Of a stretch of DNA of 64,000 bases, positions 301 through 19,628 are shown piece after piece. The notes under the pieces are model-generated. The model had not been told where the DNA came from, did no database searches, and worked only from the letters and a program-made list of their open reading frames with translations. The stretch is from positions 2,351 to 66,350 of the forward strand of contig DASVNG010000029.1 of the NCBI GenBank assembly GCA_036383995.1, written 5' to 3'. The translations under genes and the position numbers were made by a program. Within the stretch, counting starts at the first letter, position 1. Every line of letters begins with the position of its first letter. This DNA is from Pseudoxanthomonas sp. GTDB lineage: Bacteria; Pseudomonadota; Gammaproteobacteria; Xanthomonadales; Xanthomonadaceae.

Positions 301-330
301 TATTTCCCCATTTCTGGGCTACGGCACCTG

Positions 331-3300: not shown

Positions 3301-4170
3301 CCGTTCGATCCGGCTTCCGTTCCCCCGCAGAGTCTGGATATCGACGACCTGCGCTTCGGCGATGCCCGCCTGGGCAGCGCGCAGCTGCGCACGCAGCAAA
3401 CCGCCGCCGGCATGCGCGTACAGCAGCTGGCATTGCGATCGCCCAAGCAGAAGATCGACATCCAGGGCGACTGGCTGGGGCGCGGCGCGGCCGCGCGCAC
3501 CCAGCTGACCGCCGATATCGACAGCCAGGACCTGGGCGGCTTGCTGGACGATCTGGGAATCAAGGGCCGGTTGGGCGGCGGTTCGGGCAAGGTGAAGTTC
3601 GACGCCAACTGGTCGGGCAGTCCGGTTGCGTTTTCGCTATCGACCATGCAGGGCAATCTGCACATCGCCGCGCGCAACGGCCAGCTGTTGGAAGTCGAAC
3701 CCGGTGCCGGACGGGTGCTGGGACTGCTCAGCCTGACCCAGCTGCCGCGGCGGATGATGCTGGACTTCCGCGATTTCTTCTCCAAGGGTTTCGCCTTCAA
3801 CCGCATCGACGGCAACGTGCGTTTCGGCGCCGGCGTGGCGCGCAGCGAGGACATGGTGATGGACGGCCCCGCCGCGCAGATCAATATCCGCGGCAGCACC
3901 GACCTGCGCGCGCAGCGCTTCGATCAGACCATCGAAGTGCTGCCCAAGTCGGGCAATCTGCTGACCGTGGTGGGCGCGGTGGCGGGCGGTCCGCTGGGCG
4001 CGGCGATCGGCGCGGCCGCCAATGCCGTATTGAAGAGGCCGCTGGGCGAAATCGGCGCCAAGACCTATCGCGTGACCGGGCCGTGGAGAGACCCCAAAGT
4101 GGAGGTCGTCGGCCGCGAGCAGTCGCAGGTGCAAGCGGTCGGGACGGCTAACACGGCTGGGGCGCTTTGA
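331..4170 (+). CDS. yhdP: YhdP/AsmA2-family large envelope protein (TIGR02099-like)
   Basis: ATG at 331 is in frame with track ORF 157..4170; the upstream part runs into repeat DNA. N-terminal TM helix VWYVAAGVLVCMALVLGVA, 1279 aa. It sits immediately upstream of tldD, as yhdP does in E. coli. Confidence 0.8.
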   Translation: MPTPLRRRLRLARRGVWYVAAGVLVCMALVLGVASQVLPLAESHPQQIQDWLSARAGRPVAFDHVTTEWTRRGPLLRLDGLRLGEGDSVVRIGEAEVLVSMYAGLLPGRSFTELRLRGLSLTLQRANDGTWSVLGLPGQKTVGDPLKNLEGLGELQVIDGKLSVLAPTLGWNVQVPKIDLRLRVDGDRVRAGTRVWIRKEGAPVQVAFDFDRSSGDGRAYLDAQAVDMAGWTSLLRYAGVTADSGVGRVQGWVELRKRRVVLATSELKLRQVGLRGAALADGGSVPRVHFDRAEGRVRWRLTRNGWRFDAPQLLVGDQQAPQRLDGLVLAGGQEYALLANQIDAAPLFSLMGLSDRVDPGLRRWLSQAKPGARLAGVALTGSRAVGMRAQGRLEGISFLTVGHSPGLNGLAGEFVGDEQGFVLKLDPKTAFRFDWPTGFGVVHEVKLEGSLAGWREGAGWRVGTSALRIRGKDFGAQARGGLWFQGDGTRPWIDIAADIDETPVLAAKGFWIHDKMSKATVDWLNRALVGGKVRNGRAIVSGDLDDWPFTRNNGRFEAVARIEGGQFKFQPDWPAMDQVSADIAFIGNGFSIEGQGALAGVRIDQFKAGIPEFSKAELSVGARGGSDAAQMLAMLRQSPLQKKYGDTLTSLTASGPARASYEMLLPLHAQSTAAKKTRGTVELSGAHLADKRWNLAFENVRGTADFDDDGFAAEKLAVSQKAQSGAVQPGQLSLRAGSGVRDKQHAFEAELSANLSASELLDRVPEIAWLKPYVEGRSQWTVGVTMPQGGAAGMPSRLNLRSDLVGTTLKLPAPLDKPALLALPTTVQTSMPMGAGNIDVAFGKLLALRARGSGRQSGVRVVLGSNTVTDAAPASGLVASGRTASLDAIEWIALAKSGSGDGSSLPLRRIDVTADRLLLLGSAFPDTRLQVVPSGNALAVSLTGPALAGSVQVPDAKGATITGKFARLYWRSASPGKPGAVDAAAADVSDPFDPASVPPQSLDIDDLRFGDARLGSAQLRTQQTAAGMRVQQLALRSPKQKIDIQGDWLGRGAAARTQLTADIDSQDLGGLLDDLGIKGRLGGGSGKVKFDANWSGSPVAFSLSTMQGNLHIAARNGQLLEVEPGAGRVLGLLSLTQLPRRMMLDFRDFFSKGFAFNRIDGNVRFGAGVARSEDMVMDGPAAQINIRGSTDLRAQRFDQTIEVLPKSGNLLTVVGAVAGGPLGAAIGAAANAVLKRPLGEIGAKTYRVTGPWRDPKVEVVGREQSQVQAVGTANTAGAL

Positions 4171-4177
4171 GGTCTTT

Positions 4178-4335
4178 CCTTCTCCCATCGGGAGAAAGTG
4201 GCTCGAAGCGACGGATGAGGGAGGGAGAACGACTCGCCGGTAAGTTTCGCTACAAGCTGAGTTCCCATTCCCTCATCCGCCCCCGTATCAAGTACGGGGC
4301 AGGCTCTACAGGCACCTTCTCCCGATGGGAGAAGG
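4178..4335. repeat. MITE-like composite palindromic element, copy 1 (variant)
   Basis: Terminal hairpins ccttctcccatcgggagaa (left) and ccttctcccgatgggagaagg (right). Internal gatgagggag / ccctcatc arms and a ccccgtatcaagtacgggg module. Lies between the yhdP stop and the tldD start. Confidence 0.8.
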
Positions 4336-4381
4336 AACAGCCAGCTTGCCTTTACTTCATTCAACCCCAAACTAGTCCCCT

Positions 4382-5827
4382 ATGACCAATTCCTCCCTGG
4401 CCTTAGCCGAAACCCGCCTCCTTCTCCCCGCCGGCCTCGACCAGCAAGGCCTGCATCGCGCCTTCGGCACCCTGCTCGGTCCCGGCATCGATTTCGGCGA
4501 CCTGTATTTCCAGCATTCCCGGCGCGAGAGCTGGACGGTGGAAGACGGCATCGTCAAGGACGGCGCGCATTCCATCGACCAGGGCGTGGGCGTGCGCGCG
4601 ATCTCCGGCGAGAAGACCGGCTTCGCTTATTCCGACGACATCAATCCGCAGGCGCTGCTGAGCGCGGCCGGTTCGGCGCGCGCCATCGCCCGCGACGGCA
4701 GTTCGCATGCGCCGCATGCGCTGGTGCGCGGCGGCGGCCGTGCGTTGTACTCCAGCGACGATCCCATCGATGCGCTGGACAACGACGCCAAAGTGGAAAC
4801 CCTGCGCGTGGTCGACAAGCTGCTGCGCGCGGCCGATCCGCGCGTGCAGCAGGTGACCGTGAGTCTGGCCGGCGGCGTGGACACGGTGCTGGTGGCGCGC
4901 AGCGACGGCGTGCTGGCCGCCGACGTGCGTCCGCTGGTGCGCATGAACATACAGGTGATCGTCGAACAGAATGGTCGCCGTGAATCGGGCTACGCCGGTT
5001 TCGGCGGACGCTACTCGTATGCGGAATTGTTCGGTGGCGGCAAGCCGGAACAGTTCGCTCGCGAAGCCTTGCGCCAGGCGCTGGTGAATCTGGAAGCGGT
5101 GGACGCGCCGGCCGGGATGATGCCGGTGGTGTTGGGTTCGGGCTGGCCGGGCGTGTTGTTGCACGAGGCCGTGGGCCACGGTTTGGAGGGCGACTTCAAC
5201 CGTAAGGGCACGTCGACTTATGCGGGCCGCATGGGCCAGCGCGTCGCTTCGCCGGGCGTGACCATCGTCGACGACGGCACGCTACCGGGGCGCCGCGGTT
5301 CGTTGAACGTCGACGACGAAGGCACTCAGACCAATTGCACCACCTTGATCGAGGACGGCGTGCTGGTGGGCTACATGCAGGACACGCTCAACGCGCGGCT
5401 GATGGGCGTTGCGCCCACCGGCAACGGCCGCCGCGAATCCTTCGCCCACCTGCCGATGCCGCGCATGACCAATACCTACATGCTGGCCGGCCAGCACGAT
5501 CCGCAGGAGATGATCCGTTCGGTCAAGAAAGGTTTGTACGCGGTGAACTTCGGCGGCGGTCAGGTCGACATCACCAGCGGCAAGTACGTGTTCTCGGCCA
5601 CCGAGGCCTACCTGATCGAGGACGGCAAGATCACCGCACCGGTGAAGGGCGCCACGCTGATCGGCAATGGTCCTGAGACCATGCAGAAGGTGAAGATGAT
5701 CGGCCACGATCTGGCGCTGGACGCCGGCGTGGGCGTGTGCGGCAAGGACGGGCAGAGCGTGCCGGTGGGCGTGGGGCAGCCTTCGTTGCTGATCGAGGGC
5801 ATTACCGTGGGTGGGACGCGGGCTTGA
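4382..5827 (+). CDS. tldD: Metalloprotease TldD
   Basis: 481 aa with the [12 protein letters not shown] zinc-protease motif; ATG start. yhdP-tldD synteny matches E. coli. Confidence 0.95.
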
Positions 5828-5842
5828 GCGGCCTTTGCTCTT

Positions 5843-5965
5843 CCCTTCTCCCTTCGGGAGAAGGTGCCCGAAGGGCGGATGAGGGTACGGCGAAGTCCAG
5901 AATGTTTGAAGCCTCTTGGCTTCGCCGTACCCTCACCCCAACCCCTCTCCCGATGGGAGAGGGGC
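5843..5965. repeat. MITE-like composite palindromic element, copy 2
   Basis: Left arm cccttctcccttcgggagaaggtgcccgaagggcggatgagggtacgg; right arm ccgtaccctcaccccaacccctctcccgatgggagaggggc. Fills the convergent tldD/yjgA gap and abuts the yjgA stop codon. Confidence 0.85.
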
Positions 5966-6513
5966 TAAAGCGCGTCCTCGTCCTCGCCTGCTTCGTTCTC
6001 CGACAACAGCTCGCGCAACTCGCGGAACAACTCGCGGAACGCATGCGGCGGTTTGTTCTTCTTGCGCTCTTCGCCCGCGTTGCGCACCAGTTGGCGCAGG
6101 TGCTGGCGGTCGGCGGTCGGGAACTCGGACAGCAGGTCGGCCAGCGCGGCGTCGCCGTCCTCCAGCAGGCGCGCGCGCCAGGTTTCCACCTTGTGCAGGA
6201 CGGCGGTTTCGCGCCGGGCCGCATCGCCGCCTACTTCCATCGCATCGCGGATCGCATCCAGGGTCTCGTCGCTTTCCCGCCGCATCTGCTTGGCCAGGAA
6301 CTGCAGCTGCCGCTTGTGCGCGATGTGCGAAGTGATGCGCTGGGTTTCGTGGATGTGTTCCAGCAGCTCTTCGGGAATCGGCAGCTTGCCCAGATGGGCC
6401 GGCGCCAGGGCGACCAGTTTTTCCGCCAAGCTGCGGATGTCCAGCGCTTCGCGCCGTTGTTCACTGCGGCTGGGGCCCAGGAATTCGCCGGTCTCCGGGT
6501 CGGTTCCACGCAT
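5965..6513 (-). CDS. yjgA: Ribosome-associated protein YjgA (DUF615/DarP)
   Basis: ATG at 6513 ([10 protein letters not shown]...). C-terminal [34 protein letters not shown] matches the E. coli YjgA pattern. Divergent from pmbA, as in E. coli. Confidence 0.85.
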
Positions 6514-6530
6514 GTTCGTTCTCCAAAACT

Positions 6531-7910
6531 TTGTTACAGGATAAGCCATTGAACGCAATCGCCGATTTTTCCGCCGATGACAGCCTGACCCGACTGGACG
6601 CGCTGGAGAGCTTGTCGGCGCGCCTGCTGGACCGCGCCCGCGCCGCCGGCGCCAGCCAGGCCGAGGTCAGCTGCAGCGAAGACCGTGGCCTCAACGTCAA
6701 CGTGCGCATGGGCGCGGTGGAAACCGTGGAATCCACCCGCGACCGCAGCATCGGCGTCACCGTGTACTTCGGCCAGCGCAAGGGCAGCGCCAGCACCGCC
6801 GACCTGCGCGAAGAGAGCCTGGACGCCACGGTGGCGCAAGCCTGCGCCATCGCCCGCTACACAGAGCACGACGAAGCCGCCGGCCTGGCCGACGCGGCGC
6901 TGATGGCCACCGACTTCCCGGACCTGGACGCCTGGCATCCCTGGGCGCTGGAGGCCGATCACGCCATCGACCTGGCCCTGGCCTGCGAATCTGCGGGGCG
7001 CGGGTTCGATTCCCGTATCGCCAATTCGGACGGAACCTCGGTCGGCAGCGGCGAAAGTGTTTCCGTCTATGCCAATTCGCACGGATTCTTCGGCCGCGAC
7101 CGCAGCACCCAGCATTCCATCGGCTGCGCGCTGATCGCCGGACAAGGCGAAGACATGCAGCGCGACGGCTGGTACAGCAGCGCGCTGTCGCGCGACGGAT
7201 TGGAAGCGCCCGTTGCGATAGGCCGCCATGCGGCCGAGCGCACGCTGGCGCGCCTGTCGCCGCGATCGGTGGCCACCGGCCAGTATCCGGTGCTGTTCGC
7301 GGCCGAAGTCGCGCGCTCGCTGATCGGGCACTTGCTGGGCGCGGTTTCCGGCGGGGCCCTGTACCGGCGCGCCAGTTTCCTGCTGGACCATGCCGGCAAA
7401 CGGATATTCCCGGACTGGTTCGCCATCGAAGAGTTGCCGCTGCTGCGCGGCGGGCTGCGCTCGGCGGCCTTCGATGCCGAAGGCGTGGCGACCCGTCAGG
7501 CGCCGCTGGTGAGCGGGGGCGTATTGCAGCGCTATGTGCTGGGAAGCTATTCGGCCCGCAAGCTGGGCCTGCGGACCACGGCCAATGCGGGAGGCGTGCA
7601 TAACCTCAAGGTCGCCGCCAATGCGGGCGGTTTCGAGGAAATGGTGGGCGGCCTGTCCAACGGGCTGCTGGTCACCGAACTGATGGGGCAGGGTGTGAAC
7701 CCGGTCACGGGCGATTACTCGCGCGGTGCGGCCGGGTTCTGGGTGGAGAACGGCGCCATCGCCTATCCGGTGGATGGCATCACCATCGCCGGCAACTTGA
7801 AGGACGTATTCGCCGGTATCGAAGCGGTGGGCTGCGATGTGGACCCGCGGTCCCATATCAGCTGCGGTTCGGTCCTAGTGGGCAGGATGACCGTCGCGGG
7901 CGGGGATTAA
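6531..7910 (+). CDS. pmbA: Metalloprotease PmbA (TldE)
   Basis: 459 aa, colinear with E. coli PmbA ([25 protein letters not shown]). The start is uncertain: no ATG is available, so TTG at 6531 or TTG at 6549. Confidence 0.9.
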
Positions 7911-8005
7911 CGTTTTTCTGGACATGAGGTGTCGTGCGGCTGTAGTGTCGCCACGGTTAGCCTGCCGCACCACCCACACCCACCATTCCTAAAGGGAAGA
8001 AAGAA

Positions 8006-8383
8006 ATGAGTGAATTCGATAACGTGACCGCCCCACCGCCGGCGCCCTCGGGCGAGGCACCGCAGGAAGACAGGACCATCGGGTTGCTTACGCACCTGTC
8101 CGGCATCATCGCCGGTTTCATCGTTCCGCTGATCATCTGGCTGATCAACAAGGACAAGCCGGAAAAATCCTGGCTGACCGACCAGTCCAAGGAAGCGCTC
8201 AATTTCCAGATCACGCTGCTGATCGTGTACGTGATCGGCATCATCCTTTCGGTGATCCTGATCGGCGCGCTGATCAACCTGATCGCCTGGATCGCCTGCA
8301 TCGTCTTCAGCATCATCGCCGGTCTGGCCGCCAACAAGGGCGAAGCCTACCGTTACCCGTTCGCGCTGCGTCTGATCAAGTAA
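8006..8383 (+). CDS. DUF4870-like small inner-membrane protein
   Basis: 125 aa; ATG preceded by agggaaga. Two or three TM helices (LSGIIAGFIVPLIIWLI, ITLLIVYVIGIILSVILIGALINLIAWIACIVFSII) with the KS.L.DQSKEALNFQIT motif typical of DUF4870. Confidence 0.7.
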   Translation: MSEFDNVTAPPPAPSGEAPQEDRTIGLLTHLSGIIAGFIVPLIIWLINKDKPEKSWLTDQSKEALNFQITLLIVYVIGIILSVILIGALINLIAWIACIVFSIIAGLAANKGEAYRYPFALRLIK

Positions 8384-8403
8384 TCCGGAAATACCGTTTC
8401 CGC

Positions 8404-8437
8404 ACGAAGGCCCGGCTAGTCCGGGCCTTCGTCGTTT
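8404..8437 (+). terminator. Stem-loop terminator after the DUF4870 gene
   Basis: Perfect 12-bp stem acgaaggcccgg / ccgggccttcgt with a 5-nt loop, followed by cgttt. The U-tract is short, so it may be weak. Confidence 0.55.
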
Positions 8438-8473
8438 GCGGGGCCCGTATTCACGTTACTTTGCGGCCAGCTC

Positions 8474-9424
8474 TCAGGATCCAGCCTCAGGCTTGCCTGT
8501 TAGGAGGCTCATTTTGTGCAGTGCATCAAGCATCTCGGGAGGTATTGAGTTGTCCTTAGGCCACCCGCGGTGAGAGAAAATCAATTGCCGATCCTTGTAA
8601 AAATAGAATGTTGGTACGCGGGAGAAGTCAATTCCCGGCCATTTTGAGTTGTCGTACGCAATAGCTATCTTTTGCCGAGGAAATTGCCGATTCCAGCTTC
8701 TGATTTCCACAAGGTCAAGCTCTTTGCTTGCCGCGGCAAGCCAAATTGCATTTCCCCTTATAAAAGCATCTCTAACCAGCACATTGCTATCAATAGACTT
8801 CGCCGCCTTATCAGAGGTTCGGCAGCCAGAAACTACAATGATTCTGTAGCGCGCATCCATAGCTATGTTCTGCAATGAAAGCTCGTCCTCGTTAGTAGAC
8901 AGAAAAAGCGCAGCAGGGCCGTCAGCGGCCAACTGAGAATCGGAGCTCAGACGAGGAACTACAAGACGACCGTCCACGAATTCGTTAGCTCGTAGCGCAC
9001 GCGCTTGTTCCCATTGCCTGGATGCTATAAGAGACTTGAGAATATCGAGCGTTTCACCGTGCCGCTCTACCCCCCTTCGCCTAAGTTCCGCGTAGGTAAC
9101 TTGCATCGAAGAAAGGTAAAGCTGCGTATCTTTATCACCATAAGTCAGAACGTAGTTGTAGACCAATTCTGCCGCACTGAAGATCGCCCTAAGGTCGTTG
9201 GTTTCAACTGTGCCTGGGTTTTGTATCGACGAGGATGTTTGTGAAAAAACATCCTTCAATCTCTGGAGTTTTGTCTCGTTGCTATCTTCCCTTGCTTTAC
9301 TGATGTCTATTAGCTCGGCAAGAGCCAGTTGAATTTGAGAGAGATCTGAAGCGAATCCATTGTTCGATATGGAGCAAAACATGACAAGCAGAAAGAAGAT
9401 CGGTATCCGAGTTCGCGCGCGCAT
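8474..9424 (-). CDS. Secreted hypothetical protein with C-terminal thioredoxin-fold-like domain (CxxS variant); low-GC islet gene
   Basis: 316 aa from ATG 9424 (GTG 9433 alternative). Signal peptide MRARTRIPIFFLLVMFCSISNNGFA. YRIIVVSGCRTSDKAAKSI (beta1 then C-R-T-S) and RVPTFYFYKDRQLIFSHRGW (cis-Pro loop plus strand) fit a thioredoxin fold. A long ORF in ~42% GC DNA is unlikely to arise by chance. Confidence 0.65.
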   Translation of the reverse strand: MRARTRIPIFFLLVMFCSISNNGFASDLSQIQLALAELIDISKAREDSNETKLQRLKDVFSQTSSSIQNPGTVETNDLRAIFSAAELVYNYVLTYGDKDTQLYLSSMQVTYAELRRRGVERHGETLDILKSLIASRQWEQARALRANEFVDGRLVVPRLSSDSQLAADGPAALFLSTNEDELSLQNIAMDARYRIIVVSGCRTSDKAAKSIDSNVLVRDAFIRGNAIWLAAASKELDLVEIRSWNRQFPRQKIAIAYDNSKWPGIDFSRVPTFYFYKDRQLIFSHRGWPKDNSIPPEMLDALHKMSLLTGKPEAGS

Positions 9425-9456
9425 AGTAGCCACAACTTGGTAAGAATTGAGTGGAA

Positions 9457-9486
9457 CCCACTTAAGTAGTCTTGCACTTAAGTGGG
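9457..9486. promoter_or_regulatory. Perfect 11-bp inverted repeat between the two islet genes
   Basis: cccacttaagt - agtcttgc - acttaagtggg. Each half contains CTTAAG. Located 29 nt downstream of the 183-aa gene stop and 33 nt upstream of the 316-aa gene ATG. Confidence 0.5.
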
Positions 9487-9514
9487 GCCACTAGCAATTG
9501 ACAGCTATGATTCG

Positions 9515-10066
9515 TTACTTGCACTTCGCATTACAAGTGCTCCCGTACTCGTAAGTGCACCAGCTATCCTGCCCGTCCACCGTGCAATAGGCGTTCTGAA
9601 CAGGTGGCTCTTCCGTAGTGTTTTCTCCCCCGCCCCCCATTGCTGACATGAAAAGAATGGACTTCTCAGTCGGGTTCTTGGCTTTGAGTCCGGGTATTGA
9701 GGTCAAGTAACGCTGTTGCCCAAATAGGGAAAAAATCGCATATAGGTCGGTCGTGCTTGCTGAATCAAGACCAAGATATGAATAGGAAGCGAGGCCGTGG
9801 CGCGTAAATACCAGGCTCTTCAAGAACTTGTCTCGTAGTTTCGGCGGTAGCTTGTTAAGTGGTGAATCTGGTGTGGTGCGTAGGTAGCGCTCCAGATCCG
9901 ATTTCGATTTTATCGGGGCAGTCGCTTGATCGATTTCGATCTGGGTGGCATTCATTTCGCGAACTAGATCGATCCCGCTGCCCTTCTGAATGCTGGCGTC
10001 TTGAGCGTGGACCGCATGGCTGGCAACGCAGAGCGCCAATGCAAAAGCTGAGAAGATAATTTTCAT
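9515..10066 (-). CDS. Secreted hypothetical protein with Gly-linker and 4-Cys C-terminal tail; low-GC islet gene
   Basis: 183 aa from ATG 10066, with an AAGGA Shine-Dalgarno 5-9 nt upstream. Signal peptide MKIIFSAFALALCVASHAVHA. C-terminus is ...MGGGGENTTEEPPVQNAYCTVDGQDSWCTYEYGSTCNAKCK. Confidence 0.65.
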   Translation of the reverse strand: MKIIFSAFALALCVASHAVHAQDASIQKGSGIDLVREMNATQIEIDQATAPIKSKSDLERYLRTTPDSPLNKLPPKLRDKFLKSLVFTRHGLASYSYLGLDSASTTDLYAIFSLFGQQRYLTSIPGLKAKNPTEKSILFMSAMGGGGENTTEEPPVQNAYCTVDGQDSWCTYEYGSTCNAKCK

Positions 10067-10124
10067 ATTTTTCCTTTTCTGATTTCTTCCAAGAGTTAGA
10101 TCATCCAACCTGAAAGCGCCTTAG

Positions 10125-10364
10125 CTAGACTTCATTGTCTGTGATGCTGTGCTCTTCAGTATTCCCCGCACTCGCTATATACGGAAATGTTCCAGGTTTC
10201 TGATGTCTGGAAAATATTCTGTGCAGAGCCAGTTTGCGAAGAACTGAGCCAAGGTAGCAGCAATGGTCTGATTCGGATCGACGTGAGTATGGGATTCCGA
10301 CTTGGAAAGCTCGAACGTACTCAGTGCTACTTGTCTTTGTGAGCTTTAATGTTTTCGAAGGCAC
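10125..10364 (-). CDS. Doubtful small ORF (79 aa, GTG start) in low-GC islet
   Basis: Open frame only, with no recognisable motif. Overlaps the next ORF by 19 nt in another frame, so the two may be halves of one frameshifted gene. Confidence 0.25.
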   Translation of the reverse strand: MPSKTLKLTKTSSTEYVRAFQVGIPYSRRSESDHCCYLGSVLRKLALHRIFSRHQKPGTFPYIASAGNTEEHSITDNEV

Positions 10365-10609
10365 ACTAGTCTTTGAAAGCGAGGGGTTAATTCTGTTCTA
10401 CCATCACTCATGGAGAATGTGTCTTGGTAGCTCGCTTCAAGCGATTTCACTCTATTCATGAGTGGGTATTCGCGAATGGTTTCGAGGCCGAGTGCAAGAG
10501 ACAATACGGGGAAGCAAGACTTTGTTCCTGATCCGTAAGGCCACATTAAGACAATGATGAATCGTCGTGTAAATGACGTCGGGATCTCATGCAATGCAAT
10601 CTGCAGCAT
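10346..10609 (-). CDS. Doubtful small ORF (87 aa from ATG 10609) in low-GC islet
   Basis: The track ORF 10346..10720 extends into the ispA 3' end; the internal ATG at 10609 avoids that overlap. No motif recognised. Confidence 0.25.
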   Translation of the reverse strand: MLQIALHEIPTSFTRRFIIVLMWPYGSGTKSCFPVLSLALGLETIREYPLMNRVKSLEASYQDTFSMSDGRTELTPRFQRLVCLRKH

Positions 10610-10680
10610 AGTCCCTGTTCGGAACAGTCTCGGTAGCTCTCGCCTTGGTGCCGCGTCCGATGCTCTAGGGCGAAAGTCTT

Positions 10681-11559
10681 CTAGTGCGTGCGGTGGATCG
10701 CCAATTTGCCCAGCGCCCACAGCGCGGTGGCGTGTTCGCGGAAAGGGGCCAGCGCGTCGTGCATGACCCTGTCCAGCTCGACCAGCTTGGCTTTCGCGCC
10801 GTCCATGCCCAGCAAGGCGGGATAGGTCGACTTGGCCTGCGCCGCGTCCTTGCCGATGGTCTTGCCCAACCGCTCCGAGCTCGATTCCACATCCAGGATG
10901 TCGTCGCGCACCTGGAAGGCCAGGCCCAGCGCGTCGGCGAAGGTATCCAGCAGCTTGAGCGTGCCTTCATCGATGCTGCCGCCCATCGCCCCCATGCGCA
11001 CCGAGGCCCGGATCAGCGCGCCGGTCTTGAGGCGGTGCATGCGCTCCAGATCGGCGAGCGTCTGCACCTGGCCGGTGGCGTCGATATCCAATGCCTGGCC
11101 GCCGCACATGCCGCCGGCGCCAGCGGCTACGCTCAGGGCGCGTAGCCAAGACACGCGTAGCTCGGAGGCGACCGGCGCTTCGGCCAGTATTTCGAAAGCC
11201 AGCGACTGCAGCGCGTCGCCGGCCAGGATCGCGGTGGCTTCGTCGAAGGCGACGTGCACGGTAGGCCGGCCACGGCGCAAGGCGTCGTCGTCCATTGCCG
11301 GCAGATCGTCGTGCACCAGCGAATAGGCGTGGATCAGTTCCACCGCCGCCGCAGGCGCGTCCAGCCAGCGCTCGTCGGTGCCGAACACCGCGCCCGTGGC
11401 GTAGACCAGCAGGGGGCGTATGCGCTTGCCGCCGCCCAGCACGGCGTGGCGCATGGCCGCATGCAGGCGTTGCGGAGGAATCGAGGCCGAAGGCAGGGCA
11501 TGACCAAGGGCGGTTTCGACGCGTTGGGCCCAGCGCAGGAACGGGGCTTCAGTTTCCAT
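10681..11559 (-). CDS. ispA: Farnesyl diphosphate synthase (geranyltranstransferase)
   Basis: Aspartate-rich motifs [12 protein letters not shown] and [12 protein letters not shown] at 11559 (METEAPF...) is preferred over TTG at 11574. xseB-ispA synteny matches E. coli. Confidence 0.92.
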
Positions 11560-11809
11560 CAGGCAACGGCGCAAAGGGTTCGGCCGCGTCGGGCTGTTCC
11601 GGATCGCTGAGCAGGCGCACGCGCAACTCGGCCTGTTCCAATGCGGCCTGGCAGCGCCGGTACAGGCCCACGCCGCGCTCGTAGGCGGCCAGAGACTCTT
11701 CCAGGCTCATCTCGCCCTGTTCCATCTTCTCGACCAACAGTTCCAGTTCGTCCAGCGACTGCTCGAAATGGGCGACGGGGGAAGCATCGGGGGCGGGTTT
11801 GCGTGGCAT
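11549..11809 (-). CDS. xseB: Exodeoxyribonuclease VII small subunit
   Basis: 86 aa from ATG 11809, found inside track ORF 11549..12220. Sequence [47 protein letters not shown] is typical of XseB. Confidence 0.9.
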
Positions 11810-11855
11810 GGAGGCAAGTTTGGGGATGCGGGGGGAATAGGTCAATCCAGGCCGC

Positions 11856-13166
11856 TCATGCCTGGCGCGCCCAGTGCAGGCGCGCGCCCGCCTCGCGCAG
11901 CCATGCGTCGAAACCGGCGGAATAAGCCAGGTCCGCGACCGCCACCAGCTCGCCCCCGCCATTGGAGAGCAAGGGCAGGGCCTCGCGTTCCCAAGGCGGC
12001 ACGCCGAGTTCCTGCAGCAGGTTCTTGAGCGTATGCGAATGCGCGCGGCCGGGCAGGGCGATGCGCTCACCGCCCTGGCGCGCGAATACGCGCAGAGGCG
12101 AAGGAAATGCGGCGGCCCCTTGCAGCTGGAGCAGGTCGCCGCCCGGCAGCAGCAACGGCTCGCGCCCGTCCCATTCCGCGTTCCACTCGATCGGCAGCGG
12201 CTCGTGCCGCCGTTGCGCATGCAGCAGATCGCGCCAGCGTTCGATCACCCCGTCGCGCCATTCGAAGCGGGAGCGGGCGTCGGCGCGCGCCGGCAGCAAG
12301 TCGCTTTCGATCTGCGCGACGCCTTCGCCGGGCAGCGGCGGAAGGCCGAGTTCTTCTATCCAGCGACGCAACACGCGTGCGCGCCGCGTTGCCGGCAGTT
12401 CCAGCAGCGTCGCTACCGAAAGCGCGCGCGGATCAGCGGTGCGGGCCATCGCCAGCGCCAAGGCGTCCTCGCGCTGCAGCAGTTCGACGGCATCGGCGCT
12501 CAGCACTGCGCTGCGCATGAAAGCGGCATCGGCCTGCGGCCAGCGTTCGCGCAGCAACGGCAGCACACGCTGGCGCAGGAAATTGCGGTCGTGGCGGAGG
12601 TCTTCGTTGCTGGGATCCTCCAGCCAAGCCAAGCCATGCCAATTCGCGTAAGCGAGCAGTTCGGCGCGTGGCGTCTGCAGCAACGGACGCCAGTGCAGGC
12701 CCGTGGCGAAACCGCGCCATGGCCGCATCGCCGCCAACCCGTCCGGCCCGGAACCGCGCAACGCGCGCAACAGGAAGGTTTCCGCCTGGTCGTCGCGATG
12801 ATGCGCGGTGACCAGCGTTTCGCCTTCTTTCAGCACGCTTTCGAATGCGGCGTAACGCGCCTTGCGCGCGGCAGCCTCCAGTCCTTCGCCGCTGTCGCGA
12901 TCCACTTCCACATTGACGACGGTCAGCGCCACGCCAAGCGCATCGCAAAACGCCGCGCATCGCCTCGCCCATTCGTCCGCGGCAGATTGCAGGCCGTGGT
13001 GCACGTGCGCCGCGCGCAGGCCCTGTGTGCGGACCAGCGGGTCCTGCGACAGCGCATGCAGCAGCACGGTGGAATCCAGCCCGCCGCTCAATCCCACCAG
13101 CAACGGCGCGGGCCGCGTACGGCGCAGGGCGTTGTGCAGGGCGGCAGCGGGGTCGGCGGAGGTCAT
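11856..13166 (-). CDS. tilS: tRNA(Ile)-lysidine synthetase
   Basis: 436 aa with the PP-loop [16 protein letters not shown]. Lies in the accA neighbourhood, as in E. coli. Confidence 0.92.
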
Positions 13167-13285
13167 GCGCCCATGCTAGCGGTTGCGTCCACGGCATGCA
13201 GCGGTTGACCGCATCCGTCGGCGTCCAGGGTCGCTCCTACCGATCCATGGAGGCGCGGCTTGACTCTGTCCACGCTGGGAAAAGA

Positions 13286-14032
13286 TCAGTTCAGCGACGC
13301 CAGCTCGCGCTTGGCCGCATCGATCCACTCGCGCTGTTCGCGCTGGTAATACTTGGGGGAGGCTGCCGAACGGGTCAGGATTTCGTTGAAGATTTCCTTC
13401 GCTTTGCGTGTATCGCCATTGCGGACCAGCAACAATCCATAGCGCGCCCGCGCTTCTTCTCCCGGATATCCCTGCACGACATTCTCGTATTCGTGCAGCG
13501 CGGCCGGCAGATCGCCGCTGGCCTCGACCGTGCGCGCGTAGAGCAGGTGCCCGTCCTTGGAGCGGTAGTCGGGATTGGCCGCGATCAGCGCGTCCAGGGT
13601 CTGCCGGGCCTGTTGCGGCTGGCCCAGGCCGAATTGCGCTTTCGCCAGGCCCATCATCGTCTCGGGGTCGGTTTCGTAAAGACCTTTGAGCGCACCTTTA
13701 TAAAGCTCGGCCGCTTGCTGGAAGTCGCCGCTGGCCAGGCTTTCCTCGGCCAGGCGGCGCCGGTTGGCCTGCGTGTCGGAAAGTCCGAACTGGCGGCTGG
13801 CGTGGCGTTTTTCGCGCTCGGGATCGATCTTCGCCGCGACCTTGCGCACCACGCGCCTGGCGCCCGGGTCGTTGCGCATTCCAGGCAGGACCTCGGCGAA
13901 GAAGTAGATCGCCACCGCGATATACGAGAACACCAGCAGGATGAAGATCCAGTACATCGGCCGGCCGGTGCGGATTACGTGCACGCAGCAGGCGATTTGC
14001 AGCACGATGGAAAGGAGGAGGATGGGGCTCAT
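13286..14032 (-). CDS. Membrane-anchored TPR-repeat protein (PLDc_N-like N-terminal TM hairpin)
   Basis: 248 aa. N-terminal TM pair LLLSIVLQIACCVHVIRTGRPMYWIFILLVFSYIAVAIYFF. Followed by TPR-like helices (FQQAAELYKGALKG..., QQARQTLDALIAANPDY...). Confidence 0.7.
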   Translation of the reverse strand: MSPILLLSIVLQIACCVHVIRTGRPMYWIFILLVFSYIAVAIYFFAEVLPGMRNDPGARRVVRKVAAKIDPEREKRHASRQFGLSDTQANRRRLAEESLASGDFQQAAELYKGALKGLYETDPETMMGLAKAQFGLGQPQQARQTLDALIAANPDYRSKDGHLLYARTVEASGDLPAALHEYENVVQGYPGEEARARYGLLLVRNGDTRKAKEIFNEILTRSAASPKYYQREQREWIDAAKRELASLN

Positions 14033-14126
14033 GGGTCGGTCTGGTGAGATGAGTTGTGCGCCGATTGTATTTTACGGTGCGAGGCCGCGCTGTACCCGCA
14101 ATCCCTCCGCGAATAGCAATCCGGTC

Positions 14127-14199
14127 GTAGGAGCGGCGTAAGTCGCGAAATCTCCTCGCTAGCACAAGAGCTCCCGGTCGCGACTTGCGTCGCTCCTAC
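14127..14199. repeat. GTAG-type REP inverted pair
   Basis: gtaggagcggcgtaagtcgcga (14127-14148) faces tcgcgacttgcgtcgctcctac (14178-14199). Confidence 0.8.
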
Positions 14200-14245
14200 G
14201 CGCTCCTACAGCGAACCGGTGGAGCCGCAGAGCAGCCTGCTCGAC

Positions 14246-14346
14246 GTGGGAGCGGCGTCCCGCCGCGAGCTTTTGATCTTCCTTGGAAAACGCAAAGCAG
14301 AGAATTGCGCATGGACATGAAGCTCGCGGCGGGACGCCGCTCCCAC
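14246..14346. repeat. REP inverted pair (GTGG variant)
   Basis: gtgggagcggcgtcccgccgcgagc (14246-14270) faces gctcgcggcgggacgccgctcccac (14322-14346). Confidence 0.8.
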
Positions 14347-14380
14347 CGGTGTGATTGTTGCGTTTGTGATGAAGCCGGAC

Positions 14381-15340
14381 TCAGGCGGCTTCGTAAGCCC
14401 CGTAACCGCGCAGACGCTGGTACCGCTGCTTCAGCAACTCATCCATCGGCAATTGTTCCAACGCATCCAGCTCGTTGAGCAGCACGGCCTTCAGGCGCGT
14501 GGCCATCTGCCGCGGATTGCGGTGCGCGCCGCCGATGGGTTCGCGCACCACTTTGTCCACCAGGCCCAACGAAAGCAGGCGTTTGGCGGTGATGCCGAGT
14601 TGTTCGGCGGCGTCCTTGGCCTTGTCGGCCGACTTCCACAGGATCGACGCGCAGCCTTCCGGCGAGATCACCGAATAGGTGCCGTATTCCAGCATCAAGG
14701 TGCGGTCGCCCACGCCGATCGCCAACGCGCCGCCCGAGCCGCCTTCGCCGATCACCGTGCACACGATGGGCACTTTCAATTCCGCCATTTCCATCAGGTT
14801 GCGGGCGATGGCTTCGGACTGGCCGCGCTCTTCCGCGCCCACGCCCGGGTAGGCGCCGGGGGTGTCGATGAAGGTCAGCAAGGGAAGTTTGAAGCGCTCG
14901 GCCAGCTTCATCAGGCGCAGCGCCTTGCGGTAGCCCTCGGGCCGCGGCATGCCGAAGTTGCGCGCGATCTTGCTCTTGGTGTCGCGGCCCTTCTGGTGGC
15001 CGATGATCACCACGCTGCGGCCGTCGATGCGGCCCAGGCCGCCGACGATGGCGGCGTCGTCGGCATAGGCGCGGTCGCCGGCCAGTTCCTGGAACTCGTC
15101 GCAGAACACGCGGATGTAGTCCAGCGTGTACGGCCGGGCCGGGTGCCGGGCCAACTGCGAGACCTGCCAGGGAGTGAGGTCGCGGAAGATCTGCGCGGTG
15201 CGCACGCGCAGCTTGTCCTGCAGCGCGTGCACTTCGGCGTCGATGTTGACCGCCGGACCGGTGCTGGCGCTGCGCAGGTCCTGGATCTTGGATTCCAGAT
15301 CGGCGATGGGCTGTTCGAAATCCAGGTAATTCGGGTTCAT
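14381..15340 (-). CDS. accA: Acetyl-CoA carboxylase carboxyltransferase alpha subunit
   Basis: 319 aa, [19 protein letters not shown]..., [23 protein letters not shown] motif. dnaE-accA synteny. Confidence 0.96.
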
Positions 15341-15384
15341 TGGTGGACTGCGGACCGGAAAGGAGGGGGAGTTTAGCCGAAGCG

Positions 15385-15563
15385 GGGTGGGGTGCCCGTA
15401 CGGGTGGGTAGGGCGACCATTGCTTTTCCTTCTCCCACCGGGAGAAGGTGGCGCGAAGCGCCGGATGAGGGAGTGGATTTTCAGATTGACGGACGGTCAC
15501 CGTGGGTCGGAATTCTCATTCCCTCATCCGCCCTCCGGGCACCTTCTCCCGGTGGGAGAAGGG
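15385..15563. repeat. MITE-like composite palindromic element, copy 3 (variant)
   Basis: ttccttctcccaccgggagaaggtg ... ggatgagggag ... ccctcatccg ... ccttctcccggtgggagaaggg. Lies between the dnaE stop (15567) and the accA start (15340). Confidence 0.8.
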
Positions 15564-15566
15564 AAG

Positions 15567-18500
15567 CTAGTTCGCCCAAGGCCTGGAGATAGCGACCTTC
15601 ACTGTCCGAACCCCAGGGTGCGCCCGCAGCGCATCCAGCAGGTCCGTGTCCACGCGCACCGACTTGGGCCCGTTCAAATCCAGCACGCCCGCCACACCGC
15701 GCTCGCCGGATTTCAGCAGCAGGTCCAGGCGCAGAGGGGTCGCGCCGGGACGATGCTTGGAAAGCAGGGCATCGATGCGGTCCCACAGCCCCGGCACGCG
15801 CATGTCCAACCGCAGCGACAGGCGCTGGGCATGGCTGGAGCAGAGCTGCGCGTAGTCCCAGCACTGGCGCACGCGCAGGCTGAAGCCGCCGCTGAATTCG
15901 TCCTCGCGCAGGCCGCCTTGCACAATCAGGATGCGGTCGCGCGTCAGCAGCGGCGCCAGCTGCGTGTAGGCCTCGGCGAACACGCTGCATTCGATGCGTC
16001 CGCGTCCGTCCTCCAGCTGCACGAACACCTGGCTATCGCCCTTGCGGCGCAAGGCGACCACCTGTCCGGCGATGACCACGCCCACTTCCGGGCGCCAGCC
16101 TTTCTTCTCGGCCTGCGGTGCGCCGCTCCACAGCTTGTCCAACTCGCCCAGGTCGGTGCCGACCAGCGAACGCAAGTCGTCGCGATAGGGATCCAGCGGA
16201 TGGCCGCTCAGGTAATGGCCCAGGGTCTCGCGTTCGCCCGTCAGTTTCTGCGACAGCGGCCATTCGTCCACTTCGGTCAGCAGCACTTCCAAGGCGGGCG
16301 CCGCATCGCCGCCGCCGAACAAAGAAACCTGGCCGGCGTCGCGTTCCCTGGCCAACTGATCGGTGGCTTTCACCACTTCCGGAAGCTGCAGCATCAGCGA
16401 AGCGCGGTTCTTGCCCAGCGCGTCCAGCGCGCCCGCATTGACCAACGCTTCCAGCGCACGGCGATTGAGTTTGGACGAGTCCACGCGTTTGCAGAAATCC
16501 AGCAGGTCGTGGAAAGCCCCGCCGCCCGCGCGCTCGGCCGAAATGGCCTCGCAGGCGCCGCGCCCCACGCCTTTGATCGCGCCCAGCCCGTAGCGCACGG
16601 TGCGCGCGTCGGTGGCCACGAACATGTATTCCGAAGCGTTGGCTTGCGGCGGCAGCACTTCCAGCTTCAGCGTGCGGCATTCGTCCAGGAAGCCGACCAC
16701 CTTGTCGGTGTTGTCCATGTCCGAAGACAGCACCGCGGCCATGAATTCGGCCGGGTAATGCGTCTTCAGCCAAGCGGTCTGGTAGGACACCAGCGCGTAG
16801 GCGGCCGCATGCGATTTGTTGAAACCGTAGCCGGCGAACTTCTCCATCAGGTCGAAGATGGAATCGGCCTTGCGCGCGTCGATGTCGTTCTTTCCGGCGC
16901 CTTCGCGGAAGATCTCGCGGTGCTTGGCCATTTCCGCCGGGTTCTTCTTGCCCATCGCGCGGCGCAGCAGGTCGGCGCCGCCCAGCGAGTAACCGCCGAC
17001 GATCTGCGCCATCTGCATGACCTGTTCCTGGTACACCATGATGCCGTAGGTGTCGCGCAGCACCGGCTCTACGCGCGTATCCGGGTACTCCACGGGTTCG
17101 CGCCCGTGCTTGCGTTCGATGAAGGACGGGATCAGGTCCATCGGGCCCGGGCGGTACAGCGAAACCAGGGCGATCAGGTCTTCGAAACGGTCGGGCTTGG
17201 CGCGCTTGAGCAACTCGCGCATGCCGCGCGATTCGAACTGGAACACCGCGCCGGTATCGCCGGTGGAGAACACGCGTTCGTAAGTGGCCGCGTCGTCCAG
17301 CGGGATCGCGGAGATGTCCATCGGCGCTTCGCCGGTGGACTGGCGGCGCACATTGATGGCTTTCACCGCCCAATCGATGATGGTCAGCGTGCGCAGGCCC
17401 AGGAAGTCGAACTTCACCAGGCCCACCGCTTCCACGTCGTCCTTGTCGAACTGGGTCACCGGCGACTTGCCGCGGCCCTCGACGTCGTGTTCGGCGAACA
17501 GCGGGCAGAAATCGGACAGCGGCGAAGGCGCGATCACCACGCCGCCGGCGTGCTTGCCGGCATTGCGGGTCAGGTCTTCCAGTTGCCGCGCCAGATCCAT
17601 CAGGTCGCGCACGTCGTCTTCGTCGCGGTAACGGTCGATCAGTTCCTGCGACACCATGCTGCTGTCGCCTTCGCCCATCGCATCCTTCAGGGTCACGCCC
17701 AGGATGTTGGGAATGAGCTTGGCGATGCCGTCCACCAGGCCGTAAGGGAAGCCCAGCACGCGGCCGGTGTCGCGCACCACCGCCTTGGCCGCCATGGTGC
17801 CGTAGGTGATGATCTGGCTGACCCGGTCGCGGCCGTATTTGCGCGCGACGTAGTCGATGACTTCGTCGCGTCGGTCCATGCAGAAGTCGATGTCGAAGTC
17901 GGGCATCGACACGCGTTCGGGGTTGAGGAAGCGCTCGAACAGCAGGCCGTAGGGCAGCGGATCCAGGTCGGTGATGCCCAGCGCCCAGGCCACCAGCGAA
18001 CCGGCGCCGGAACCGCGCCCGGGCCCGACCGGAATGCCGTGCTGCTTGGCCCAGTTGATGAAGTCGGCCACGATCAGGAAGTAGCCGGGGAAGCCCATGC
18101 GCACGATGACGTCGACTTCCAGGTCCAGGCGCGCGCGGTAGTCGTCGGCGCTGTGTCCTTCGGCCAGCGGATTCTTGCGCAGGCGCTCTTCCAGGCCATC
18201 GTGCGACTGGCTGCGGATCCAGCTGTCCAGGGTCTCGTTGCTGGGCACCGGATACGCCGGCAGGGCGTATTGGCCCAGCGTCAGTTCCAGATTGCAGCGC
18301 TGCGCCAGCGCATGGGTGTTGTCGATCGCATCGGGCACGTCGGCGAACAGCGCGGCCATTTCGTCGGGCGATTTCAGGTATTGCTCGGGGCTGTATTCGC
18401 GCGGACGCTTGGGATCGTCCAGCACGCGGCCGGTGGAGATGCACACGCGCGCTTCGTGCGCGTCGTAGCCTTCGCGGTCCAGGAACCGCACATCGTTGCT

Positions 18501-19124
18501 GGCGATCACCGGAAGCCCGCGCGCGGCGGCGGCATGCAAGGCGAAGGCGTTGAATGCGTCTTCGCCTTCGCGCTGGGTGCGGGTGATCTCCAGGTGCAGG
18601 TTTTCGCCGAAGCTGCGTTGCAGGTCGGCGAGATGCTGTTCGGCGTGTTCGTGGCGCCCGCCCGCGGCCAGCCGTCCCGCGTAGCTATGGCGGCCGGCGA
18701 TGGCGAACAGGCCTTCGCAATCTTCGCGCAGCCATTCCGGTGCGATAGCCACGCCGTCGGTGTGGTGGCCTTCCATCCAGGCGCGCGTCAACAGGCGCGA
18801 CAACGACAAATATCCGGTGTGGTCGCGACATAGCAGGGTCAGCTGCCAGGGGCTTTCCTTGCCGTCGACGATGCTCAGGTCGGCGCCGGCGATGGGCTTG
18901 ATGCCCACCGATTCGGCGGCTTTGTAGAACTTGACCAGCGCGAACAGGTTGTTGCGATCGGTCACCGCCAGCGCCGGCAGCCGCATCTCCACCGCGCGGC
19001 TCAGCAGATTGGGCCGTTTGGCCTTGTCCGGGCGGGCTTCGTCCGGCTTTTCGGGCACGCGGATGGTCGAATCCGCGAGCGAGAATTCGGTGTGCAGATG
19101 GAGGTGGATGAAGCGGGAAGACAT
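15567..19124 (-). CDS. dnaE: DNA polymerase III alpha subunit
   Basis: 1185 aa. PHP-domain N-terminus FIHLHLHTEFSLADS; GFNKSHAAAYALVSYQTAWLK motif. Confidence 0.97.
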   Translation of the reverse strand: MSSRFIHLHLHTEFSLADSTIRVPEKPDEARPDKAKRPNLLSRAVEMRLPALAVTDRNNLFALVKFYKAAESVGIKPIAGADLSIVDGKESPWQLTLLCRDHTGYLSLSRLLTRAWMEGHHTDGVAIAPEWLREDCEGLFAIAGRHSYAGRLAAGGRHEHAEQHLADLQRSFGENLHLEITRTQREGEDAFNAFALHAAAARGLPVIASNDVRFLDREGYDAHEARVCISTGRVLDDPKRPREYSPEQYLKSPDEMAALFADVPDAIDNTHALAQRCNLELTLGQYALPAYPVPSNETLDSWIRSQSHDGLEERLRKNPLAEGHSADDYRARLDLEVDVIVRMGFPGYFLIVADFINWAKQHGIPVGPGRGSGAGSLVAWALGITDLDPLPYGLLFERFLNPERVSMPDFDIDFCMDRRDEVIDYVARKYGRDRVSQIITYGTMAAKAVVRDTGRVLGFPYGLVDGIAKLIPNILGVTLKDAMGEGDSSMVSQELIDRYRDEDDVRDLMDLARQLEDLTRNAGKHAGGVVIAPSPLSDFCPLFAEHDVEGRGKSPVTQFDKDDVEAVGLVKFDFLGLRTLTIIDWAVKAINVRRQSTGEAPMDISAIPLDDAATYERVFSTGDTGAVFQFESRGMRELLKRAKPDRFEDLIALVSLYRPGPMDLIPSFIERKHGREPVEYPDTRVEPVLRDTYGIMVYQEQVMQMAQIVGGYSLGGADLLRRAMGKKNPAEMAKHREIFREGAGKNDIDARKADSIFDLMEKFAGYGFNKSHAAAYALVSYQTAWLKTHYPAEFMAAVLSSDMDNTDKVVGFLDECRTLKLEVLPPQANASEYMFVATDARTVRYGLGAIKGVGRGACEAISAERAGGGAFHDLLDFCKRVDSSKLNRRALEALVNAGALDALGKNRASLMLQLPEVVKATDQLARERDAGQVSLFGGGDAAPALEVLLTEVDEWPLSQKLTGERETLGHYLSGHPLDPYRDDLRSLVGTDLGELDKLWSGAPQAEKKGWRPEVGVVIAGQVVALRRKGDSQVFVQLEDGRGRIECSVFAEAYTQLAPLLTRDRILIVQGGLREDEFSGGFSLRVRQCWDYAQLCSSHAQRLSLRLDMRVPGLWDRIDALLSKHRPGATPLRLDLLLKSGERGVAGVLDLNGPKSVRVDTDLLDALRAHPGVRTVKVAISRPWAN

Positions 19125-19200
19125 ACCGCTAGCAGGGTAGCGGGAGGGGTGGGGTCGAACAAGGCTTGACAGTCCGTGGCGACGCCTGGCCCTTGCTGCG

Positions 19201-19527: not shown

Positions 19528-19628
19528 GACGAACCTCTCTGCTTGATTCCGCTGGCCACCCCGCGCTTGCGGGGCGGCCAGGAGCAGGAATTTGCGAATG
19601 CGGACTGCTTGCCCAGTAGAAGCGGGGC

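Follow-up and report, generated by a model that had tools for sequence, protein, structure and literature searches.

How did a short tract of low-GC DNA come to lie between two genes that nearly all relatives of its host share, and what might the genes that it carries do there? Here, we address this question for an islet of low guanine-plus-cytosine (GC) content of ~2.24 kb (positions 8445-10680), located between the gene of a DUF4870 membrane protein and ispA in a 64,000-nucleotide stretch of DNA (hereafter the window; contig C29, positions 2351-66350) from a Pseudoxanthomonas sp. genome (GCA_036383995.1), a 3.86-Mb draft in 57 contigs that is 99% complete. A first-pass annotation of the window had described the islet as an old or non-canonical horizontal acquisition, or a cargo remnant. 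We find that the islet is a recent horizontal insertion without mobility genes, and its horizontal acquisition can be stated firmly, because its composition is foreign and its DNA is absent from 24 congeners. It carries two minus-strand genes, here termed A and B, which occur as a coupled pair in other genomes and in metagenomes, and in some relatives this pair is an integron cassette.

An insertion between the ispA stop codon and the ispA terminator

In sliding 300-nt windows, GC is 0.44-0.52 over approximately 8450-10700 compared with 0.65-0.72 on either side, and it recovers within one such window beyond each end of the islet. Taken together, positions 8465-10680 have a GC content of 48.5% against 64.3% for the genome (z ~ -5.3), and only 33 of the 18,703 genome windows of 2.2 kb (standard deviation 0.030) are at or below 0.49, which corresponds to the lowest 0.2%. 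The same difference is seen at third codon positions (GC3), with values of 0.576 for gene A and 0.492 for gene B vs 0.80-0.85 in pmbA, DUF4870, ispA and tilS. The low-GC islet is thus real, although the 40-43% GC given for it earlier applies to its lowest 60-nt lines and not to its mean. Further, the GC3 of its genes is still ~0.3 below that of the host, and the description of the acquisition as old is therefore not supported, while the description as non-canonical agrees with the lack of mobility marks set out below.

The edges of the islet were placed by alignment with the closest congener featuring an empty site (G010), whose ispA is ~85% identical in DNA, and they confirm that the change in composition is abrupt on both sides. 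On the left, the window keeps a terminator hairpin (8404-8432; a perfect 12-bp inverted repeat) together with ~12 bases after it and then diverges, placing the edge just past the hairpin at ~8445. On the right, the edge is at 10680, adjoining the ispA stop codon (10681-10683), and the C-terminus of ispA is intact and aligns with those of the congeners. Because the edges are at these two positions, the insertion lies between the ispA stop codon and the ispA terminator, and the ancestral hairpin now stands downstream of gene B. The host genes on the two sides are the DUF4870 gene (8006-8383, plus strand; Pfam PF09685, E 2.7e-32; GC3 0.85) and ispA, encoding farnesyl diphosphate synthase (10681-11574, minus strand; NCBIfam FPPsyn, E 8.5e-101). 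The hairpin is common to these two convergent genes and was seen at the empty sites of four congeners (G010, G001, G016 and G009). Its sequence (GAAGGCCCGG...CCGGGCCTTC, window 8403-8447) also recurs, in the form of short matches of high identity, at unrelated places in several congeners and once in the same genome (contig C33), and it may be a common terminator or a motif resembling repetitive extragenic palindromes (REP-like).

The islet DNA had no match in 40 relatives (24 congeners and 16 more), in nearly all of which DUF4870 and ispA were found, and in 14 congeners these two genes are convergent neighbours 60-185 bp apart that share one terminator. Conservation of the same genes at this junction throughout the family, which would point to a resident locus, was looked for by comparing the junction across relatives, with a negative outcome. 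That the low GC marks an ancient resident locus under special constraint, and not foreign DNA, appears extremely improbable, as nothing beyond the absence of mobility genes favours such an origin, whereas the absence of the islet DNA from 24 congeners, the 14 empty junctions, the lack of a match to the A profile in 14 of the 15 congeners sampled in a family-level search and a GC3 0.3 below that of the neighbouring genes all argue against it.

As noted in the first-pass annotation, the islet features no integrase, transposase, tRNA or flanking repeats. No tRNA was found in window positions 1-20000, no direct or inverted repeats beyond matches of chance size flank the islet, and no Rfam match falls on it. 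Its open reading frames (ORFs) matched no Pfam family and no phage or defence family (PHROGs, PADLOC), and neither A nor B had a match among plasmids. A six-frame search of the genome for the integron integrase (TIGR02249) reached at best 73.7 bits against a cut-off of 265, and these matches are XerC/D-like. The integrase or transposase, tRNA and repeats that define a classical genomic island, prophage or insertion sequence element are, consequently, all lacking.

The credible ORFs of the islet are, as had been proposed, all on the minus strand (8474-9424 and 9515-10066). The remaining part, between the ispA stop codon and gene A (10067-10680), is an orphan AT-rich spacer (GC 0.48) with no convincing gene; its small ORFs had no Pfam match, it has no paralogue in its own genome, no similarity to other A-B loci, and no attC, the recombination site of integron cassettes. 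The spacer may represent a 5' leader or promoter region or decayed cargo. As a candidate for a decayed gene it was rejected, since besides having no paralogue it gave a best per-genome E of 0.002 in a search of 250 genomes of the order, which is not significant.

The A-B gene pair and its relatives

Gene A (9515-10066, minus strand) encodes 183 amino acids (aa) comprising a signal peptide, a conserved N-terminal domain, a Gly-rich linker and a C-terminal 4-Cys knot. By inspection, both A and B begin with a signal-peptide-like N-terminus. The N-domain of A features the motifs APIKS..DL.RYL, SLVFT.HGLASYSY and LSLFG, the linker is of low complexity (GGGGENTTEEPP), and the knot follows the pattern C161-x8-C170-x7-C178-x3-C182-K. 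Among 153 family members, exactly four Cys residues are found in the last 45 residues of 110 and six in 18, whereas members without any are mostly truncated sequences. At least 123 of 137 tails keep the framework C-x(5-13)-C-x7-C-x(3-4)-C, the last Cys lies 0-3 residues from the C-terminus in 123 of the 137, and the residues between the tail cysteines are highly variable. Judging from these sequences, A appears to consist of an N-domain tethered by a flexible linker to a tiny C-terminal 4-Cys knot. The possibility that A is a lipoprotein was rejected by inspection, as its LALC motif does not form a canonical lipobox and is absent in relatives.

Neither A nor the sampled members of its family matched any Pfam or NCBIfam model, and a sequence-profile search of the PDB returned nothing meaningful for A. 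A profile of A, run against 1.84 billion representatives, nevertheless matched at least 805 clusters (at 50% identity) with E<=1e-3, of which 428 reached E<=1e-10, and almost all of the matches are 165-200 aa long. The proteins, for which no family could be named from the sequence of the window, are thus without a database model, but they are not orphans and are members of a sizeable unnamed family pair.

Gene B (8474-9424, minus strand) encodes 316 aa, in which a helical domain (~30-147) follows the signal peptide and the C-terminal domain has a thioredoxin fold. In the AlphaFold2 model, with an overall predicted local distance difference test (pLDDT) score of 72, the helical domain (30-147) is followed by an alpha/beta domain (171-304), most of which has a pLDDT of 70-92, except for a low-confidence loop at ~262-267. 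The top 50 Foldseek matches of B in the PDB all have a thioredoxin fold, including ResA, TlpA-like proteins, peroxiredoxins and the two-domain Bacteroides protein 4yod. The single invariant Cys201 (SGCRTS) lies after strand 193-199 and before helix 205-213, and a cis-Pro motif of the form [VIT]P[TSN]FY, in B VPTFYFY, precedes strand 272-277; because of these positions relative to the strands and the helix, the layout of active site and cis-Pro is the canonical one. The second active-site Cys is missing, with CRTS in B and CKTS, CHIS, CNVA, CHFA/T or CNFS in relatives, only one of which has CGFC. B matched no Pfam or NCBIfam model, its relatives reached only E 0.1-0.2, and a PDB profile search returned only sub-threshold thioredoxins (E 0.5-1.2). 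Thus, of the features that mark a thioredoxin oxidoreductase, the fold is present and the CxxC motif and a curated family model are not. B is also not a peroxiredoxin, as its motif is CxxS and not PxxxTxxC. On the basis of the predicted structure, B is most simply described as a TlpA/ResA-like thioredoxin fold that has kept only the nucleophilic cysteine.

Relatives of high identity are few, with 6 clusters for A and 3 for B among 5.8 billion proteins, and a close pair was found in one other species genome out of 185,579, that of Thermomonas fusca DSM 15424. A scan of metagenome contigs added two further loci only. In the taxonomic family of the host, an A-like gene is present in 55 of 401 sampled genomes (14%; 25 of 64 genera), and among 400 genomes drawn across the class only the Pseudoxanthomonas genome itself matched A.

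The two genes are almost always found together. In every locus recovered for close relatives, A is followed by B, and a B-like sequence is coupled to an A-like one in 32 of 34 further contexts that were checked, seven of them single fusion ORFs. Of these, all 9 metagenomic contexts are coupled, with B downstream in 8 and fused in 1 (hmmsearch E 1e-7 to 1e-89), as are 23 of 25 isolate loci, with A then B in 17 and a single fusion ORF in 6, while A only was found in 2 short loci. The isolate fusion ORFs (L071-L076; e.g. L073, 3318-4574) encode 415-455 aa comprising the A N-domain and the helical and thioredoxin-like domains of B. Such fused genes look resident, because the GC of their loci is host-like (0.65-0.72) and because two of them, in different genera (L072 and L073), are located between hisS and hisG, in L073 together with a Trp-repressor-like gene. 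In the light of the gene coupling and the recurrent fusion, comparison of the sequences indicates that the A N-domain and B work together, and the knot, which the fused relatives lack, would be an add-on of the mobile form.

Within the 90-nt spacer between A and B resides a stem-loop (9457-9486, minus strand) with a perfect 11-12-bp stem and no U-tract, which folds better than all of 200 shuffled sequences (z = -4.53). The stem is kept in two related pairs (L001 and L010), with compensatory changes at 4 of 16 pairs, in a spacer that is otherwise divergent. Equally strong hairpins of other sequence occupy the same position in most of the spacers that were folded, the exceptions including overlapping genes, and most of these hairpins also lack a U-tract. 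The A-B hairpin could raise A over B through processing, through stability or by partial attenuation. Upstream, a promoter and terminator scan, otherwise uninformative, found no minus-strand terminator-like site between ispA and A. Since the pair is co-directional with xseB-ispA and upstream of the old terminator, and no terminator-like site separates ispA from A, the sequence suggests that A and B may be expressed by read-through from xseB-ispA.

Route of entry and the integron-cassette pool

The gap between ispA and DUF4870 is a recurrent landing site in the genus. Apart from the islet, the junction holds other inserts, 0.26-7.6 kb in size, in seven congeners. One of these (G017) is a 1.6-kb attC-bounded cassette insert with a GC of 0.545, in which two attC sites, scoring 89.8 and 50 bits with a covariance model (R1) built from 11 attC sites of the islet's own genome and T. 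fusca, bracket a DUF2971 gene, and the second site abuts the ispA stop codon. In this mini-array (L027; G017:C1:1253900-1256950, attC at 967-1036 and 1908-1967), the R' end of the distal attC is degenerate, and the insert looks like the product of an attC x genome-site insertion. The other inserts include one of 3.8 kb with DUF1800/DUF1501 genes and a lower-GC DUF6348 gene beside ispA (G019), one of 5.1 kb with a ParE toxin-antitoxin pair and a lower-GC 2-hydroxyacid dehydrogenase gene beside ispA (G020), two of 2.5 kb (G005) and 7.6 kb (G023), and 0.26-0.48 kb of extra DNA in two congeners (G006 and G011), the former with an additional DUF4870 copy at the junction. Taken by itself, the islet is nothing unusual among genomic events, as a small piece of DNA gained horizontally at an intergenic hotspot that tolerates insertions.

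Some relatives of the A-B pair are integron cassettes. In T. fusca (L035/L060), the pair has a GC of 0.40-0.50 and resides within an array of attC sites of the form ..CTAACAATTCGTTCAAGCCGA...GGCTTAACTCAGGTGTTAGGC, where the attC upstream of the pair ends in GTTATGC and the downstream one begins with GCATAAC, complementary ends that are the mark of a cassette, and one metagenome contig (L043) consists of exactly one A-B cassette with attC halves at both ends. In these cassette-borne pairs, A is 43-47% identical to that of the window. The islet's own genome contains 37 attC-like 60-nt sites (nhmmer), none of them on contig C29, which form ~11 loci (same-strand clusters or singletons) on 10 contigs, including C9, C18, C23, C25, C27, C34, C41, C47 and C57, and are of the Xanthomonadales type. 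The clusters are arrays of the type known as clusters of attC sites, or single attC sites, lacking integron integrases (CALIN and SALIN, respectively), and many coincide with the ~38 low-GC regions of the genome. In published work on Xanthomonas, CALINs at sites other than ilvD were present in about half of the genomes (bioRxiv 10.1101/2025.06.18.660453). We consider it plausible, with about an even chance, that the islet DNA was drawn from the cassette pool of the Xanthomonadales, its attC having been lost or never carried here. The term cargo remnant also fits, because a related pair is an attC cassette elsewhere and the same junction holds attC cassettes in G017.

Cassettes may not be the only vehicles, and the pair has a GC below that of its flanks in every locus where this could be measured. 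On a 9.5-kb metagenomic contig (L001), it lies between direct repeats of ~280 bp (4733-5011 and 7185-7460; 92-94% identical) derived from the 5' end of a host gene of 206 aa, and the contig also carries a type IV secretion system (T4SS) effector with an XVIPCD domain, HicAB and a PG_binding_1/GH19-like protein. In two other loci (L056, 2140-3561; L055, 3300-3707), the pair comes immediately downstream of a reverse transcriptase of a group II intron and of an rve-family transposase fragment, respectively, and these two contexts suggest further vehicles for the module. Additionally, at an unrelated locus of one congener (L077; G008:C15:18000-26000, with features at 2589-4117 and 6679-7256), a distant A-B pair has two attC-like sites ~2.5 kb away.

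Taken as a whole, the islet is in our view probably best explained as an insertion without mobility genes, consisting of cassette-pool DNA and carrying a two-protein exported redox operon, and we hold this explanation with some reserve. Several observations count against it. No attC was found in positions 7900-11000 with the R1 model and filters off (best 2.6 bits, E = 2), nor, within the islet, by a fuzzy motif search or a simple structural scanner, which was too strict and recovered only 1 of 5 known sites; further, the islet shows no attC relic, GWT-type junction or integrase, and a weak likeness to attC (AATGAAGTCTAGCTAAGGC), located ~60 nt upstream of A, fell short of significance and was discarded. 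Moreover, the nearest relatives of the pair (L001 and L009/L010) also lack attC, and since neither they nor the islet feature one, a cassette origin rests on the sister clade at 43-47% identity and on the junction of a congener. In terms of cassette features, the same unit is attC-bounded elsewhere, while its own attC and an integrase are missing. Likewise, the 570-bp spacer finds no explanation in such an origin. With regard to the proteins, the AlphaFold2 model of A is poor (pLDDT 53) and found no match in a fold search, and the fused proteins lack the Cys knot and have the active-site Cys as the sole Cys of the mature protein. As the fused relatives do without a knot, the chemistry of B would not depend on the tail in all members, which weakens the idea of B as a dedicated isomerase of the tail.

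The same absence of attC, integrase and a GWT junction would agree with a simpler route, in which the islet arrived by homologous recombination or illegitimate end-joining after transformation with DNA from an unsampled relative, with no link to integrons, and cassettes are other vehicles of the pair. We regard this as possible but rather doubtful. It would account for the nearest pairs (L001/L002 and L009/L010) not being attC-bounded, for the position of the L001 pair between 280-bp direct repeats of a host gene, and for the inserts of G019, G020 and G023 at the junction, which have no intact attC and in which only a weak 13-bit partial site was seen (L023). It fits less well with the attC cassettes at the same junction in G017, with a genome rich in attC arrays of the same family, or with the documented ability of integron integrases to place cassettes at positions other than att, from which host promoters can drive their expression (bioRxiv 10.1101/2022.09.11.507474). 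The islet itself bears on how cassette cargo becomes fixed outside integrons, as it is a clear case of a module that forms an integron cassette in one genus and sits without attC behind a housekeeping operon in another.

Possible functions and comparison with known systems

Once placed in the narrow interval that separates the ispA stop codon from the terminator that ispA shares with the convergent DUF4870 gene, A and B would be transcribed with, or downstream of, xseB-ispA, and the hairpin between them would keep A in excess over B. The N-domain of A would then dock on B, the two being one polypeptide in the fused relatives, and the single thiol of B might handle the disulfides of the tethered knot by isomerisation or through a mixed disulfide. 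In such a scheme, the knot could be the client of B, which would be its dedicated isomerase; it could be a shuttle dithiol for B; or it could be a targeting module or a released peptide. More broadly, we tentatively propose, as one possibility, that A and B are the two parts of an exported redox module that has not been described before and has its centre in Xanthomonadaceae-type bacteria, existing as a vertically inherited fused gene (between hisG and hisS) and as a mobile split operon (in cassettes and islets) whose A has gained a hypervariable tethered knot of the form C-xn-C-x7-C-x3-C.

The variable tail could also be read differently, with A as a secreted pro-protein that gives off its knot as a peptide with an antimicrobial or signalling role, and B as its dedicated thiol-disulfide partner or immunity factor. 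The Sec signal, the leader-like N-domain and the hypervariable tail on a fixed Cys framework would suit such a role, as would the order of structural gene, hairpin and accessory gene, the mobility and foreign composition of the module in many hosts, the L001 pair residing among genes for antibacterial T4SS effectors, and analogues among disulfide-bonded secreted peptides with a thioredoxin-family partner, namely EntV with DsbA (PMC6606811) and pediocin PA-1 with PedC (PMC4919988). Nevertheless, we find this unlikely, because the pair is not accompanied by genes for a protease, a transporter or immunity, nor was a cleavage motif demonstrated, no antimicrobial family is matched, and in other genera the fused versions, which have no tail, are core genes located between hisG and hisS.

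The XVIPCD is a domain of the T4SS effectors with which Xanthomonadales kill other bacteria. The A-B pair was rejected as an effector/immunity pair of this kind (X-Tfe/X-Tfi), as A and B have no Pfam match and hence no XVIPCD, and L001 is the only context with an XVIPCD protein next to the pair. Elsewhere in the islet's genome, seven XVIPCD proteins were observed (contigs C47, C23, C18, C42, C34 and C56), several of them in or beside low-GC regions.

Another reading starts from the fusions, and takes A and B together as one periplasmic redox enzyme acting on other envelope proteins or small molecules, with the C-x3-C of A as a shuttle or resolving dithiol, or as a targeting or metal-binding module. 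Fusions of the A N-domain with B recur in six or more isolate genomes and retain no Cys but that of the active site, the resolving Cys is absent from B in nearly all members, and the last Cys of A sits at the very end of the chain behind a flexible linker, all of which would suit a joint enzyme. The hypervariability of the tail would, however, be unusual for a catalytic shuttle arm, and no substrate or partner genes are linked to the pair, and we therefore consider a joint enzyme improbable as well.

Returning to the explanation that we prefer, in which the islet is an exported redox operon drawn from the cassette pool, its larger value would be in the cargo, a fairly widespread and uncharacterised two-protein module with near-obligate coupling and recurrent fusions. 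A periplasmic thioredoxin fold with one cysteine, tied to a tethered hypervariable 4-Cys knot, represents a concrete and testable system, and it could inform envelope disulfide chemistry or the biology of secreted peptides in plant- and soil-associated Xanthomonadales. Should the knot prove to be the active part, it would represent a new class of Sec-exported bacterial cysteine-knot peptides, and if the proposed scheme holds, a leader-like domain would guide knot peptides to their own one-cysteine isomerase, a logic like that of conotoxins or of ribosomally synthesised and post-translationally modified peptides (RiPPs) but without RiPP enzymes.

Among known proteins, B compares best with the oxidoreductases TlpA, ResA and CcmG, with which it has in common the predicted fold (Foldseek probability ~1.0, target-normalised template modelling score 0.5-0.57), export, a Cys at the N-terminus of helix alpha-1 and a cis-Pro-type motif. 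It differs from them in having one Cys (CRTS; CxxS/A/T in relatives) in place of CxxC, an extra N-terminal helical domain of ~120 aa, an obligate pairing or fusion with an A domain, and no Pfam or NCBIfam thioredoxin model above threshold. In monothiol CxxS relatives of protein disulfide isomerase, such as yeast Eug1 and ERp44, the N-terminal nucleophilic Cys alone can isomerise disulfides or hold clients via a mixed disulfide; these are eukaryotic proteins of the endoplasmic reticulum that have no homology to B beyond the fold and no dedicated client gene.

In sublancin, with BdbA-BdbB, an accessory thiol-disulfide gene is part of the same operon. Like A and B, the systems of sublancin, EntV and pediocin combine an exported precursor, in which the C-terminal part is disulfide-bonded, with a thioredoxin-fold accessory that is required for, or linked to, correct disulfide formation and whose gene in the pediocin case lies in the same operon, as B does with A. 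Their partners have CxxC, and they are Gram-positive, proven bacteriocins with transporters or immunity genes, whereas A and B share no sequence homology with them and have a one-Cys partner and tail-less fused relatives. The resemblance to an operon of bacteriocin and oxidoreductase would therefore be one of architecture only.

As a piece of DNA, the islet compares with cassettes outside integrons, that is, with CALIN and SALIN cassettes (Cury et al. 2016, PMC4889954) and attG insertions (Loot et al., bioRxiv 10.1101/2022.09.11.507474). It differs from integron cassettes in the defining feature, an attC or recognisable relic of one, in the missing 5'-GWT-3' junction and in the 570-bp orphan spacer that precedes its genes. 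Like the cassettes outside integrons, it is a small foreign unit of single orientation without a neighbouring recombinase, in a position open to transcription from a host promoter, and it has homologous pairs that are true attC cassettes and a host with 37 attC-like sites and no IntI.

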